Translations under genes and position numbers: made by a program
Shown here: positions 245 through 8,920 of the stretch, piece by piece
How positions within the stretch are numbered: position 1 is the stretch's first letter
Layout: each line of letters begins with the position of its first letter
Notes under the pieces: generated by a model
What the model saw: only the letters and a program-made list of their open reading frames with translations
The model's database searches: none
What the model was told of the DNA's origin: nothing
Source: a virus
Reading direction: 5' to 3' (one strand)
UHGV virus genome: UHGV-1711741
DNA length: 10,545 nucleotides

Positions 245-669
245 TGCTTCTGATCCCTGAAACTCATGAATTAGTTCTCGAGAATGTCGAAGCACTTATT
301 CCTGAAGCACAGGGTCGCTTTGACGAATTGTCTTCTGCTTTAAATAAAGACGATATAAATACAATTGTCGAGAATATGCTTGATGATGAAACTGATTTAG
401 CGGTTGCATTAGCTTCTATTAATGAAAATATGCCGTTAAATGAATTTATCGTTAAACATGTTTCTGCCCGTGGTGAAATTACTCGCACTAAAGATCGCAA
501 AACCCGCGAACGTAATGCATTTCAAACTACCGGGTTGTCTAAAGCAAAACGTAGACAAATTGCTCGTAAAGCTACCAAAACGAAGATTGCCAATCCAGCA
601 GGTCAATCTCGTGCTCAGCGTAAGCGTAAAAAAGCTCTTAAACGCCGTAAAGCATTAGGATTAAGCTAA
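244..669 (+). CDS. 68: Prohead core protein gp68 (T4 gene 68-like)
   Basis: 141-aa ORF, the length I recall for T4 gp68. Strongly basic Lys/Arg-rich C-terminal tail. Start overlaps the gp67 stop and its own stop overlaps the gp21 start (TAATG at 667-671), indicating translational coupling. Confidence 0.75.
354..361 (+). promoter_or_regulatory. Internal TATAAATA motif within gene 68 (possible late promoter or chance match)
   Basis: Exact 8-mer, but about 307 nt upstream of the next start and inside a coding region. Roughly one chance hit per strand is expected in AT-rich DNA of this length. Confidence 0.2.
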
Positions 670-1307
670 TGAATGAACCCCAATTACTAATTGAAACTTG
701 GGGTCAACCTGGCGAAATTATTGATGGCGTACCAATGCTTGAATCTCATGATGGAAAAGACTTAGGTTTAAAACCGGGTTTATACATCGAAGGAATATTC
801 ATGCAAGCGGAAGTCGTCAATAGAAATAAACGTCTTTATCCAAAACGTATATTAGAAAAAGCGGTAAAAGACTATATTAATGAGCAAGTTTTAACTAAAC
901 AAGCTCTCGGAGAATTAAATCATCCTCCACGCGCTAATGTTGACCCGATGCAAGCCGCTATCATTATAGAAGATATGTGGTGGAAAGGAAATGACGTATA
1001 CGGACGAGCTCGTGTTATTGAAGGTGACCATGGTCCTGGAGATAAATTAGCAGCTAATATTCGTGCCGGATGGATTCCAGGAGTTTCTTCTCGTGGATTA
1101 GGTTCATTGACTGACACAAATAAAGGTTATCGTATCGTAAACGAAGGATTCAAATTAACTGTAGGTGTTGATGCAGTATGGGGTCCAAGTGCTCCAGATG
1201 CATGGGTAACTCCTAAGGAAATTACCGAATCACAGACGGCGGAAGCCGATACAAGTGCCGATGACGCCTATATGGCTCTCGCAGAGGCCATGAAAAAAGC
1301 GTTATAA
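669..1307 (+). CDS. 21: Prohead core protein and protease gp21 (T4 prohead serine protease)
   Basis: 212-aa ORF. His85 (ELNHPP) and Ser140 (IPGVSSRGLGS) fall exactly where I recall the catalytic His/Ser of T4 gp21. Position between 68 and 22 matches T4 synteny. Confidence 0.9.
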   Translation: MNEPQLLIETWGQPGEIIDGVPMLESHDGKDLGLKPGLYIEGIFMQAEVVNRNKRLYPKRILEKAVKDYINEQVLTKQALGELNHPPRANVDPMQAAIIIEDMWWKGNDVYGRARVIEGDHGPGDKLAANIRAGWIPGVSSRGLGSLTDTNKGYRIVNEGFKLTVGVDAVWGPSAPDAWVTPKEITESQTAEADTSADDAYMALAEAMKKAL

Positions 1308-1310
1308 ATA
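1303..1310 (+). promoter_or_regulatory. T4-type late promoter motif TATAAATA for gene 22
   Basis: Exact TATAAATA overlapping the gp21 stop codon (1305-1307), ending 27 nt upstream of the gene 22 ATG. Confidence 0.7.
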
Positions 1311-1337
1311 TTATTATCTAAACAACAGGACTACAAA

Positions 1338-2147
1338 ATGCTTAAAGAACAACTGATTGCTGAAGCGCAAAAAATTGATGCTTCCGTTGCTCTTGATAGT
1401 ATTTTCGAATCAGTTAATATTTCTCCGGAAGCAAAAGAAACTTTCGGCACTGTATTCGAAGCTACCGTCAAGCAGCACGCCGTTAAATTAGCTGAATCTC
1501 ATATCGCTAAAATTGCTGAAAAAGCAGAAGAAGAAGTAGAAAAAAATAAAGAAGAAGCCGAAGAAAAAGCTGAGAAGAAAATCGCTGAGCAAGCTTCTAA
1601 ATTCATCGACCATCTTGCGAAAGAATGGCTCGCTGAAAATAAATTAGCAGTTGATAAAGGCATCAAAGCCGAACTGTTTGAATCCATGCTTGGTGGATTA
1701 AAAGAGCTCTTTGTTGAACACAACGTTGTTGTTCCAGAAGAATCAGTTGATGTTGTAGCTGAAATGGAAGAAGAGCTGCAAGAACATAAAGAAGAATCAG
1801 CTCGTCTGTTCGAAGAACTCAATAAGCGTGACGCATATATCAATTATGTGCAGCGTGAAGTGGCATTGAGCGAAAGTACTAAAGATCTGACTGAGTCTCA
1901 AAAAGAAAAAGTCTCTGCTCTGGTCGAAGGTATGGATTATTCAGATGCATTCTCAAGTAAATTGAGTGCCATCGTAGAAATGGTGAAGAAGTCTAATAAA
2001 GATGAAAGCACTATTACTGAGGGTATAAATACTCCTGATACTGAAGCAGCCGGACTGAATTTCGTCACTGAAGCTGTAGAAGATAAAGCTGCACCTGGTG
2101 CAGAAGATATTGTAAGTGTATATGCGAAAGTCGCATCTCGTTTCTAA
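1338..2147 (+). CDS. 22: Prohead scaffolding core protein gp22
   Basis: 269-aa ORF. Highly charged Glu/Lys/Ala-rich sequence typical of a coiled-coil scaffold (AEKAEEEVEKNKEEAEEKAEKKIAEQ). Preceded by TATAAATA and a Shine-Dalgarno (AGGAC). Lies directly upstream of the major capsid gene. Confidence 0.85.
   Translation: MLKEQLIAEAQKIDASVALDSIFESVNISPEAKETFGTVFEATVKQHAVKLAESHIAKIAEKAEEEVEKNKEEAEEKAEKKIAEQASKFIDHLAKEWLAENKLAVDKGIKAELFESMLGGLKELFVEHNVVVPEESVDVVAEMEEELQEHKEESARLFEELNKRDAYINYVQREVALSESTKDLTESQKEKVSALVEGMDYSDAFSSKLSAIVEMVKKSNKDESTITEGINTPDTEAAGLNFVTEAVEDKAAPGAEDIVSVYAKVASRF
2024..2031 (+). promoter_or_regulatory. T4-type late promoter motif TATAAATA inside the 3' end of gene 22 (candidate gene 23 promoter)
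   Basis: Exact TATAAATA 134 nt upstream of the gene 23 ATG. No closer consensus motif is present. A chance occurrence in AT-rich DNA is possible. Confidence 0.5.
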
Positions 2148-3731: not shown

Positions 3732-3744
3732 TCTTTGACGATTT

Positions 3745-3776
3745 AAGGGACCTTCGGGTCCCTTTAGTTGTTTTTA
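3745..3776 (+). terminator. Rho-independent terminator after gene 23
   Basis: Perfect 8-bp stem AAGGGACC / GGTCCCTT closed by a UUCG tetraloop (3753-3756), followed by a T-rich tract (TAGTTGTTTTTA). Confidence 0.8.
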
Positions 3777-3779
3777 TGG

Positions 3780-3787
3780 TATAAATA
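3780..3787 (+). promoter_or_regulatory. T4-type late promoter motif TATAAATA for gene 24
   Basis: Exact TATAAATA immediately after the gene 23 terminator hairpin, ending 27 nt upstream of the gene 24 ATG. Confidence 0.75.
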
Positions 3788-3814
3788 AATCATATAAACT
3801 GAAAGGAAAGCGCA

Positions 3815-6424: not shown

Positions 6425-6622
6425 TCACCTTTTATTAATATGTCTTTTTCTATAGACAACTTTTTCTCGAGTTTCAAATTTATTTTTAGCAGTCATAGCT
6501 CGAGCCCATAATACAGCCACTTCTTTCGCCTGTAAGTTTAATTCACGAGCAATTTCAATGAATGACTTTCCAGACTCATGAAGAGTAAACACCACAACCT
6601 CAGTTCTCATAATCAATCTCAT
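6425..6622 (-). CDS. 24.3: Small hypothetical protein with a possible helix-turn-helix (T4 24.3-like by synteny)
   Basis: 65-aa ORF. The segment SGKSFIEIARELNLQAKEVAVLWARA resembles an HTH DNA-binding motif, followed by a basic C-terminus. First gene of the minus-strand 24.3-24.2-rnlB block. No obvious Shine-Dalgarno at the annotated ATG, so the start is uncertain. Confidence 0.5.
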   Translation of the reverse strand: MRLIMRTEVVVFTLHESGKSFIEIARELNLQAKEVAVLWARAMTAKNKFETREKVVYRKRHINKR

Positions 6623-6680
6623 GTTATCGAGTTGGTGCCATTATATACATCATTTTCTGATTGTGTTTTGTGTGCTTTCA

Positions 6681-6707
6681 AAATGAAGAAAGGGGCCGAA
6701 GCCCCTT
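6681..6707 (-). terminator. Candidate terminator or stabilising hairpin downstream of hoc
   Basis: Stem AAGGGGC / GCCCCTT with a 4-nt loop (6697-6700) just after the hoc stop. The minus-strand tail (TCTTCATTTT) is only moderately T-rich. Confidence 0.5.
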
Positions 6708-6711
6708 ATGA

Positions 6712-7563
6712 TTATGGATAGGTATAGATGATACCAGTTTCTAAAGCAGTTTTATGAATGATGTATCCATTACGCGATTCTTGAACATCAACTTCTTGAT
6801 AGTCTTTCATCATCTTCTGAAGAGTGTAACGATGCAGGTAGTATTTACTGTCTGGATCTTCAGTTTTCCAATCTTTACCTTCTTCGGTCATTTTTTGGAT
6901 TTCATCCATAACCCACCAACCGCACCAGATATAAGCTGAAGTACGATGTGGAAGAGGATGAACATAAGGCAATTCACCTTCTGGTTCCGGAGCAACTTTA
7001 TCAGTTACCTGAACTTGGCCTGTTGCTTTAACTGTTTTACTATCATAGTCGGTTGCTGTAACGACAGCAGTAACTTCAATAGTTTGACTTCCAATAGATG
7101 AGGTGTCAACGGTGTATACGTTAGTTGATCCTTCTACAGGAGAACCGTCGACGTGCCATTGATACGTAGCAGATGCACCTGGCGGCTGTGAATCTAAGGC
7201 AGCAGTAAATTGAACTGGAGTTCCAATTACTCCAGCTGAAGGACTATTAGGAGTTACTGTTATTGTAGTAGTCTGTGTCTTATTTTGAACTGTGATAGTT
7301 GTCGTAGTTTCTGCTGTTTCAGGTTCAGCTTCAGATTCTGGAACTGTATTTGTTGCAACCACCTTAATAGTCTTTTGACCTGCAGGTCCTTTTAGTACAT
7401 AGCTAAAAGTTGCTTCAGCTCCATCCTGTGGAACATTATCTACACTCCAAGCATAGGTAATAGTTCCACCTTCAGTTTGACCACTGGGTGCAGCAGTAAA
7501 CTGCTTGGTTTCATCAATAACTCCTGTTGGGGTTTTAGGAGTTATATCAACTGTAAAAGTCAT
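6712..7563 (-). CDS. hoc: Hoc, highly immunogenic outer capsid protein (Ig-like decoration protein), short 283-aa form
   Basis: N-terminus MTFTVDITPKTPTGVIDETKQFTA. Two internally repeated Ig-like modules (TYAWSVD vs TYQWHVD; GVIDETKQFTA vs GVIGTPVQFTA), Thr/Val-rich beta-strand composition, and a conserved C-terminal capsid-binding region (YIWCGWWVMDEIQKMTEEGKDWK). Start lies 9 nt downstream of the inh stop. Confidence 0.85.
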   Translation of the reverse strand: MTFTVDITPKTPTGVIDETKQFTAAPSGQTEGGTITYAWSVDNVPQDGAEATFSYVLKGPAGQKTIKVVATNTVPESEAEPETAETTTTITVQNKTQTTTITVTPNSPSAGVIGTPVQFTAALDSQPPGASATYQWHVDGSPVEGSTNVYTVDTSSIGSQTIEVTAVVTATDYDSKTVKATGQVQVTDKVAPEPEGELPYVHPLPHRTSAYIWCGWWVMDEIQKMTEEGKDWKTEDPDSKYYLHRYTLQKMMKDYQEVDVQESRNGYIIHKTALETGIIYTYP

Positions 7564-7572
7564 AAGTTATCC

Positions 7573-8253
7573 TTATTTTAATGTTACGAAAGAAGAATTG
7601 CGTGTTTCACGAATTAGAACTGATCCATCACGATTAATGTAGTAAATTAAGCTAAATAACGTTTGGTGCGCCGACGCGTGTTCAAAACTAGTTGGGTGAG
7701 ATTTCCAATCAGGAGTTTCAGCAATCCATTGATAAATCCACCAAGGAACAGTACAGAATCCTGGATTTTTTCCAATCAGCTGAAGATTCGGACTAAAGTT
7801 TTCCGGAAGAGTAAATACAGACGGCTTTTCAGATTCAATAATCTCAGCTACAGCCTGTTCAAATTTTTCTTCAACAAATGGAGTATCTTCAATCAAAACA
7901 TCGGTATTTTCAGGAATTTTATCTGTTTCTACTACTTCAATTTTAATGTCAGATTTAACCGGAGAATCAATCAAAAGTGCTGCTTCTGGATTGACTTCTT
8001 CATCGTCATATTTTAACCCCTCTGCAGCATCAGCAGCATCAATTAAGTCTTTAATAGATAACCCATCAGTCTCCGGCATAGGTTCACTAGCGAGCTTCTG
8101 GAGAGCTTCTTCAATATCATTAACGATATTATCAAAAGATTTATTCTTTTTGACCTTTATACCAAACTGTTCAGCATATTCAGCTAATTTAGCTTTAGCT
8201 TCTTTATTATCATCAAGAGCCTTCAGCTCTGCAATATAATCTTTATCTATCAT
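7573..8253 (-). CDS. inh: Inh-like protein (inhibitor of the prohead protease gp21)
   Basis: 226-aa ORF directly upstream of hoc on the minus strand, as I recall for T4 inh. Good Shine-Dalgarno (GAGGA) before the ATG. Acidic, non-repetitive protein. Assignment rests on synteny and recalled size only. Confidence 0.65.
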   Translation of the reverse strand: MIDKDYIAELKALDDNKEAKAKLAEYAEQFGIKVKKNKSFDNIVNDIEEALQKLASEPMPETDGLSIKDLIDAADAAEGLKYDDEEVNPEAALLIDSPVKSDIKIEVVETDKIPENTDVLIEDTPFVEEKFEQAVAEIIESEKPSVFTLPENFSPNLQLIGKNPGFCTVPWWIYQWIAETPDWKSHPTSFEHASAHQTLFSLIYYINRDGSVLIRETRNSSFVTLK

Positions 8254-8302: not shown

Positions 8303-8920
8303 ATGTACCACTTTGTATATGAAACAACAAATCTAATAAATGGTAAAAAGTATATAGGAAAACACTCTACTGATGACTTGAATGATGGTTACCTTGGTTC
8401 CGGTAAGGCAATTCAGCAGGCTATAAAGAAATATGGTGAAAACAATTTCTCTAGAACAATACTAAAAGAGTTTAAAACTTCCGAAGAAGCGTACATGTAT
8501 GAAGAAGAAATTATAACTCCTGAAATAATAAAAAGCAAAAATTATTATAATATGAAACCTGGTGGAATTGGTGGAATTGTTATGACTACAGAGGTTATAG
8601 CAAAGATGAAAGAATCTTCCGCTAAGAGATTTGAAAACTCACCGGGCACGGTATTAGGTACAACTTGTTACACTAATGGAACTAAAAATATTTTTATTAA
8701 ACCTGGAGAACTTGTTCCAGAAGGATTTGTAAAAGGGATGGTTCATCCTAATAGAAAGTCCAGAAAAGGATGTAAAGTCAAACCGACTACCACAGGAACT
8801 TTTTGGGTCAATAATGGCGTAATAAATAAATTAATACAACCAGACGGTATTATTCCCGACGGATTTATTAAAGGTCGTCTCATGAAAAGAGATTCTAAAG
8901 GCAAATTTAGTAAGGCATAA
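8303..8920 (+). CDS. segE: GIY-YIG homing endonuclease (SegE-like free-standing endonuclease)
   Basis: 205-aa ORF. N-terminal GIY-YIG module (F-V-Y at residues 4-6, K-Y-I-G at 16-19, about 10-residue spacing). C-terminal half has two tandem ~22-aa repeats ending in P-[ED]-G-F-[VI]-K-G, typical of modular DNA-binding regions in phage homing endonucleases. Very AT-rich. Sits between inh and uvsW, where I recall T4 segE. Confidence 0.8.
   Translation: MYHFVYETTNLINGKKYIGKHSTDDLNDGYLGSGKAIQQAIKKYGENNFSRTILKEFKTSEEAYMYEEEIITPEIIKSKNYYNMKPGGIGGIVMTTEVIAKMKESSAKRFENSPGTVLGTTCYTNGTKNIFIKPGELVPEGFVKGMVHPNRKSRKGCKVKPTTTGTFWVNNGVINKLIQPDGIIPDGFIKGRLMKRDSKGKFSKA

Follow-up and report, generated by a model that had tools for sequence, protein, structure and literature searches.

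The open reading frame for the surface protein Hoc in a 10,545-nucleotide stretch of viral DNA (UHGV virus genome UHGV-1711741; this whole stretch is referred to as the window) codes for 283 aa, and an earlier note on this DNA had read it as a Hoc with two Ig-like domains in place of the three of phage T4. This raises the questions of whether such a short allele exists in natural phage populations, by which event it might have come about, and whether its product could still act as a capsid fibre.

The hoc locus and the layout of its product

As revealed by whole-window megablast and an ORF map, the window is Tequatrovirus DNA with a top match that is 97-98% identical. The plus strand carries, in this order, genes 67, 68, 21, 22, 23 and 24, and the minus strand rnlB, 24.2, 24.3, hoc and inh, with segE and uvsW being located back on the plus strand past the minus-strand block. 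When compared to the T4 annotation, this gene order matches that of T4 except for segD, which is missing between genes 23 and 24. The gap between these two genes comprises 83 nt (window 3732..3814) at the site where T4 has the GIY-YIG homing endonuclease gene segD, so that the window comes from a phage without segD. Like in T4, segE (205 aa, GIY-YIG) resides between inh and uvsW (window 8303..8920). It is absent from the genomes carrying a second short allele of 281 aa (see below) and the closest long allele, respectively, where uvsW adjoins inh. According to the T4 annotation and to the genes called on metagenomic contigs, hoc is located between inh and 24.3/24.2/rnlB as in T4, in the block next to genes 23 and 24.

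The features of the gene and its surroundings are given below, D1 to D3 denoting the successive Ig-like modules of the long forms and P0030 the closest long allele found (378 aa, metagenomic, ERZ16268256 scaffold_29).

6712..7563, minus strand: hoc gene, 283 codons plus the TAA stop codon at 6712..6714, matching T4 Hoc
7570..7574, minus strand: Shine-Dalgarno sequence AAGGA as read from the sequence, which overlaps the stop codon of inh and precedes the hoc ATG by 6 nt
7288..7563, minus strand: Ig-like domain D1 (aa 1-92) with the acidic linker PESEAEPETAE, collinear with D1 of T4 and P0030
7135..7287, minus strand: N-half of the hybrid Ig domain (aa 93-143), D2-type (…ATYQWHVDGSPV), 48/51 identical to P0030 D2
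7136..7144, minus strand: deletion junction with the sole remaining copy of the 9-nt direct repeat TTCTCCTGT
6997..7134, minus strand: C-half of the hybrid Ig domain (aa 144-189), of the last-module D3-type and including D153, 46/46 identical to P0030 D3
6715..6996, minus strand: C-terminal capsid-binding domain (aa 190-283), carrying P256Q, as aligned to T4 Hoc
6690..6707, minus strand: GC-rich hairpin AAGGGGCTTCGGCCCCTT plus T-run, resembling an intrinsic terminator and starting 5 nt past the hoc stop codon

In phage OE5505 a terminator is annotated at the position matching this hairpin. With respect to promoters, the window contains five exact copies of the T4 late-promoter motif TATAAATA, all of them on the plus strand (354, 1303, 2024, 3780 and 8267), a number that compares to about 1.1 expected by chance and was reached in 1/200 shuffles. 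Ahead of hoc or inh, the minus strand contains no exact copy of the motif.

The reading frame is intact over its entire length. A phmmer search of PDB chains matched its product to T4 Hoc (5vf3_Z, 376 aa) at E = 6e-169, the match consisting of two overlapping stretches in which residues 1-179 of the query correspond to residues 1-178 of T4 Hoc and residues 87-283 to residues 181-376, and thus the middle of T4 Hoc is missing from the query. T4 Hoc itself does not have the length of the window protein, as T4 hoc comprises 1131 bp coding for 376 aa in NC_000866. The difference of about 93 aa given in the earlier note is correct as a net value; compared to P0030 it amounts to 95 codons, since T4 lacks two residues of the linker between D1 and D2. 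Likewise, the domain boundaries proposed there (1-95, 96-190 and 191-283) deviate by no more than three residues from those found here (1-92, 93-189 and 190-283). Mosigvirus alleles share with T4 the linker that is two residues shorter, and a 6-bp (Glu-Ala) indel in the same acidic linker (window ~7327..7334) separates the two short alleles from each other. The capsid-binding domain (residues 190-283) aligns to residues 283-376 of T4 Hoc with about four substitutions. One change in this domain, P256Q (window 6796..6798), results in KDYQEVDV vs KDYPEVDV and is rare, as Pro occupies this column in 117 and Gln in one of the 118 clusters examined.

The Pfam PKD match of the protein reached 22.1 bits, slightly below the cut-off of 23.5. 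In an AlphaFold2 run based on an alignment of 60, mostly parental, sequences the protein is modelled with two beta-sandwich domains at residues 4-93 and 101-187, with block pLDDT values of 79-94 for D1 and of 71-89 for the hybrid. D2 and D3 of P0030, when modelled from the same sequences, reached 78-94 and thus values above those of the hybrid. The hybrid domain is therefore predicted to keep the Ig fold, albeit at somewhat lower confidence than the parental domains. For the C-terminal domain, pLDDT was below 50 in the window protein as well as in the parent, the alignment being shallow and made up of closely related sequences. When compared to the PDB by Foldseek, the protein aligned over about 200 columns with structures of two Ig/PKD/FN3 domains in tandem, one of them being RB49 Hoc (3shs; E = 4.5e-7). 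Together, the two methods predict two Ig-like folds plus a C-terminal domain, in line with the earlier count of two Ig domains and not the three of T4.

Deletion junction and parental allele

Across all aligned positions the window gene is 98.1% identical to P0030 hoc at the nucleotide level, and the sole length difference between the two is an exact gap of 285 bp, i.e., 95 missing codons that comprise the C-half of D2 and the N-half of D3. As P0030 also shares the linker, the D2 subtype and an identical C-half of D3 with the window protein, it is the best model of the parent, from which the short allele differs in that P0030 keeps the 285 bp between two copies of TTCTCCTGT. In P0030 hoc these copies are found at position 420 in D2, covering G-S-P-V codons, and 285 bp further on at position 705 in D3 (S-S-P-V), while both the window gene and P0107 contain a single copy and no other rearrangement.

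To the left of the repeat the window DNA is identical to D2-type sequence (D2 of PYps32T), and to the right it follows D3-type sequence with one synonymous difference from the long alleles (GGA vs GGG). The same partition is seen in the protein, where the N-half of the hybrid is identical to the N-half of P0030 D2 at 48/51 positions (94%) but only 41% identical to the N-half of D3, and where the C-half is identical to the C-half of D3 at 46/46 positions (100%) but only 38% identical to the C-half of D2. The second module had indeed been described beforehand as the start of one domain joined to the end of another. With 51 + 46 = 97 aa, the hybrid is one residue longer than the 96 aa of each parental module.

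Direct repeats in the parental gene do not exceed 10 nt, and the 9-nt repeat ranks among the longest of them. It is one of the few that are spaced about one module (285 bp) apart, which is why the product is in frame and in structural register. Since D2 and D3 are only about 41% identical at the protein level, the event was a microhomology deletion and not ordinary homologous unequal crossing-over. Of the earlier proposal of a recombinational in-frame deletion between tandem Ig repeats, the in-frame deletion between D2 and D3 is thus borne out by the nucleotide alignment, but the exchange made no use of extended homology and maps to the 9-nt TTCTCCTGT. The nucleotide and protein alignments show an in-frame deletion via microhomology between the two TTCTCCTGT copies together with the parentage of either half-domain.

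Based on these comparisons, the parental hoc had a D2 of the '…QWHVDGSPV…' subtype and either three Ig modules, as in P0030, or possibly four or five. By an illegitimate deletion at short direct repeats, the DNA between TTCTCCTGT in D2 and TTCTCCTGT in the last Ig module was lost, amounting to 285 bp in the case of a three-Ig parent. As both repeats encode Ser-Pro-Val after the strand with the core Trp, in frame and in structural register, the result is a chimeric Ig domain of 97 residues with the first strands through the Trp strand from D2 and the remaining strands from D3, while D1 before it and the capsid-binding domain after it are left unchanged. The number of Ig modules in the parent may be three but possibly also four or five, because a PYps32T-like parent would give the same product; in PYps32T it is the first D2-type module that carries the TTCTCCTGT repeat.

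Such an origin has a precedent in the classical deletion studies on the rII genes of T4, in which deletions between short direct repeats reportedly leave one copy of the repeat while the intervening DNA is lost. However, the rII deletions are null mutations obtained in the laboratory, whereas the deletion in hoc results in an in-frame and in-register domain chimera in natural populations.

The Hoc protein of T4 (highly immunogenic outer capsid protein; PDB 5vf3/8t1x; PMC10385173) is encoded at the same gene position and has an almost identical D1. It differs from the window protein by having three Ig modules, where the window protein has two with the second being a D2/D3 chimera, and by the lack of the two extra residues in the linker between D1 and D2. 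In addition, D2 of T4 reads YVDDSQV and has no TTCTCCTGT repeat, and T4 itself could therefore not make the exact deletion.

Naturally short Hoc proteins are also found in the Shigella phage SP18 (282 aa), in the Klebsiella Jiaodavirus KLB2 (280 aa) and as the second Hoc of the Serratia phage Muldoon, the latter having two Ig domains and 314 aa (PMC10385173). These are, however, diverged orthologues (52-58% identity) with a second module that is wholly of the D3-type, and not products of a recent chimeric deletion. As two-Ig forms exist in sister genera, namely in SP18, consisting of D1, a D3-type module and the C-terminal domain, and in KLB2, a short ancestral Hoc is plausible at deeper levels, and one might ask whether the two-Ig form of the window, too, came first and gained a module by insertion or duplication to give the three-Ig alleles. 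Given the sequence pattern at the junction, this is extremely improbable: the two halves of the hybrid are 94-100% identical to two different modules of P0030, as opposed to 38-41% for the complementary halves, whereas a duplication of the hybrid would give two near-identical modules. Moreover, the second module of SP18 is D3-type throughout and no hybrid, and a repeat that is single in the short and double in the long form is the signature of a deletion.

Occurrence and origin of the short allele

The window is 100% identical to two contigs from human-gut metagenomes, ERZ1304296 NODE_23 (167,713 bp) and UMIC01022929.1, while a k127 contig of ERR414484 deviates from it by a single nucleotide; these three agreeing assemblies may share the same or related read sets, and the coverage of the long contig is about 4x. 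The sequencing project PRJEB5224 has been used again in meta-analyses of human-gut disease. A second genome, ERZ18533996 NODE_16, with a coverage of about 19x, codes for a Hoc of 281 aa with the identical junction and 96.7% nucleotide identity. The two short alleles differ at 28 of 846 aligned nucleotides, in addition to the 6-bp indel in the linker. Apart from lacking segE, this second genome has an rnlB gene (RNA ligase 2) that gene calling splits into ORFs of 94 and 205 aa (6426..7430), which suggests a disrupted or interrupted gene.

Searches of the window by blastn and tblastn with the deleted 285 bp and 95 aa, respectively, returned only weak paralogous matches to D1 and D2. A frameshift, with the missing domain encoded in another frame or elsewhere, was therefore rejected as a candidate explanation, in accordance with the intact frame. 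A collapsed tandem repeat was rejected, too, because TRF detected no tandem array in the window gene and the similarity between D2 and D3 is too low.

Repeat-containing genes are nevertheless the classic site of assembly collapse, and with an allele that is known from metagenome assemblies only, the longest contig being covered about 4x, the deletion might have been created by an assembler merging tandem Ig repeats and be carried by no phage at all. However, the 9 identical nucleotides that D2 and D3 share at the junction are far below any assembler k-mer, and one of the contigs is a product of k = 127, whose graph cannot be collapsed by a repeat of 9 nt. TRF detected no tandem repeat in the gene, and the three assemblies agree. 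In particular, the same junction is present in an independent, diverged genome at about 19x, which renders an assembly error unlikely; taking all these observations together, an artefact is very unlikely. We therefore consider it highly probable that the window carries a genuine natural hoc allele of a human-gut Tequatrovirus, made by a microhomology deletion that gave rise to a chimeric Ig domain.

The short allele is rare. A scan for the junction pattern gave no match in IMG/VR and none in GTDB genomes, the one match in JGI/ENA metagenomes was the source contig of the window itself, and no INPHARED phage record contained the exact junction. A comparison of the two short alleles gave a dN/dS of 0.20 overall and, for the hybrid domain, of 0.25. 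These values are compatible with continued constraint, although recombination with long alleles may account for part of the variation.

With P0030 either short allele shares 98.1% identity, compared to 96.7% between the two. The nearest neighbours of the individual half-domains among 118 clusters point to the group of P0030, P0033 and P0034 for both of them. As to a closer long parent for the 281-aa allele, the best phage record is 97.1% identical. To judge from these identities, the deletion may have occurred once, long ago, with recombination thereafter, or twice at this repeat in separate events. That both genomes share the junction although either one has a long allele as its nearer relative is in keeping with independent origins. 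Accordingly, the D2/D3 hybrid could be imagined as a selected and recurrent short-fibre form, either with the in-register 9-nt repeat serving as a deletion hotspot or with the allele being spread by recombination, although we regard this as rather unlikely. If it were true, Tequatroviruses of the gut could switch the reach of Hoc and gain a new chimeric glycan-binding surface, in a process complementing the expansions by 288-bp unequal crossing-over behind the four- and five-Ig forms.

Ig copy number, function and relevance of the short fibre

The three Ig domains from which the earlier note started hold for T4 with its 376 aa, but for T4 only, since close relatives have two, three, four or five modules. 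Of the 120 best protein clusters, two are 281/283 aa long, 88 fall within 376-378 aa and 30 within 468-472 aa, and hoc genes with verified lengths of 1137 bp (ESh25), 1425 bp (PYps32T) and 1713 bp (UGKSEcP2, 570 aa) were found. Amongst 50 locus matches, drawn as an evenly spaced sample from the full-length Tequatrovirus/Mosigvirus locus matches and with the number of modules inferred from the span, one was two-Ig (PNJ-9), 26 were three-Ig, 20 four-Ig and three five-Ig (about 2, 52, 40 and 6%, respectively). Thus, Hoc is copy-number polymorphic in Tequatrovirus and Mosigvirus, with two to five Ig modules. In the five-Ig hoc of UGKSEcP2, TRF detected a tandem array of 3.1 copies of a 288-bp unit consisting of D2-type modules (571..1452); going by this repeat structure, the expansions are 288-bp tandem duplications of the D2-type module. 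Unequal crossing-over among D2-type modules stops at three Ig modules, so that a two-Ig form needs an illegitimate event. Hoc homologues with 1, 2, 3 and up to 10 Ig domains have been listed (Fokine et al. 2023, PMC10385173). Among the papers searched, none on Ig copy-number polymorphism within the Hoc of Tequatrovirus was found, the most specific ones being Fokine 2023 and the papers on PNJ-6/PNJ-9.

Variation at this locus also includes records in which the gene is broken. The hoc gene of OE5505 (301..1437) contains an in-frame TAA in D3, in the T2 record PV648364.1 hoc is annotated in three fragments, and in MZ375356.1, a 151.8-kb 'T4' record, it is mostly missing. All three are natural or laboratory hoc-defective alleles.

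A published protein of similar architecture is the Hoc of the Mosigvirus PNJ-9 (PQ100635), likewise from a T-even coliphage and consisting of 283 aa with two Ig domains and the capsid-binding domain. It belongs to a phage of another genus with 84% nucleotide identity over the locus, and it has kept a complete D2 and lost D3 cleanly at the linker (…SLTVN|DKVA…), whereas the junction in the window lies in the middle of a domain (GSPV|EGSTN). Through its Hoc, PNJ-9 adheres to MUC2 and to the mucus of the intestine (Fu et al. 2024, J Virol, PMC11853027), the MUC2-binding residues of the protein being S183-L184-T185 (PMC11853027). These residues sit in the segment that is deleted from the window Hoc (NEVSLT linker). 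With the two-Ig Hocs of PNJ-9 (PMC11853027) and Muldoon (PMC10385173) having been described already, the two-Ig architecture as such is less unusual than had been assumed. However, the hybrid-domain junction differs from the published two-Ig Hocs, and it is therefore the allele that is new, in a protein that is known and length-polymorphic.

In T4 Hoc, residues 281-376 form the domain that binds the gp23* hexamer (PMC10385173). By analogy, the short Hoc would still dock at the centres of gp23* hexamers via its C-terminal domain, and its fibre should be one Ig module shorter than the ~180 Å of T4 Hoc. The hybrid lacks the C-half of D2 and the 'NEVSLT' linker and retains the D3 segment NVYTVD153TSS, in which D153 is the equivalent of D246 in T4. 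With the D246N exchange, T4 binds fucosylated glycans less strongly and has a mild advantage in a gut-on-a-chip (PMC9271167). Folding, capsid binding and adhesion of the 283-aa Hoc are inferred.

Even with the deletion being real, the chimeric Ig domain might be misfolded and the allele a transient variant with loss of function or partial function. Hoc is dispensable in the laboratory (PMC10385173), so that an allele with a badly folded product could be retained for some time, and natural nonsense and fragmented alleles do exist in the isolates OE5505 and T2. The lower AlphaFold2 confidence of the hybrid compared to the parental domains, the unusual P256Q in the capsid-binding domain and the fact that the allele is very rare would fit such a fate as well. 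On the other hand, the frame has remained intact in two alleles that differ at 28/846 nucleotides and show a dN/dS of 0.2-0.25, the junction is in exact structural register (97 aa compared to 96 in each parent), and AlphaFold2 still gives a complete beta-sandwich, so that a decaying gene appears unlikely.

With variable Ig counts and a functional two-Ig Hoc having already been published, the natural allele described here does not overturn the current understanding and will not come as a surprise to specialists. It is useful for work on Hoc and glycans and provides an example of a microhomology-mediated domain fusion in a natural phage population. Hoc is a surface fibre of T4 that has been implicated in mucus adherence (BAM model), immunogenicity and antigen display, and the length of the fibre and its exposed Ig surfaces are therefore relevant to persistence in the gut, phage therapy and vaccine scaffolds. 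As a natural in-register domain swap, the hybrid could help to locate the regions of D2 and D3 on which glycan binding depends. Finally, the polymorphism of two to five Ig modules, in which the three-Ig form of T4 is but one state, may turn out to be more useful than the single allele.
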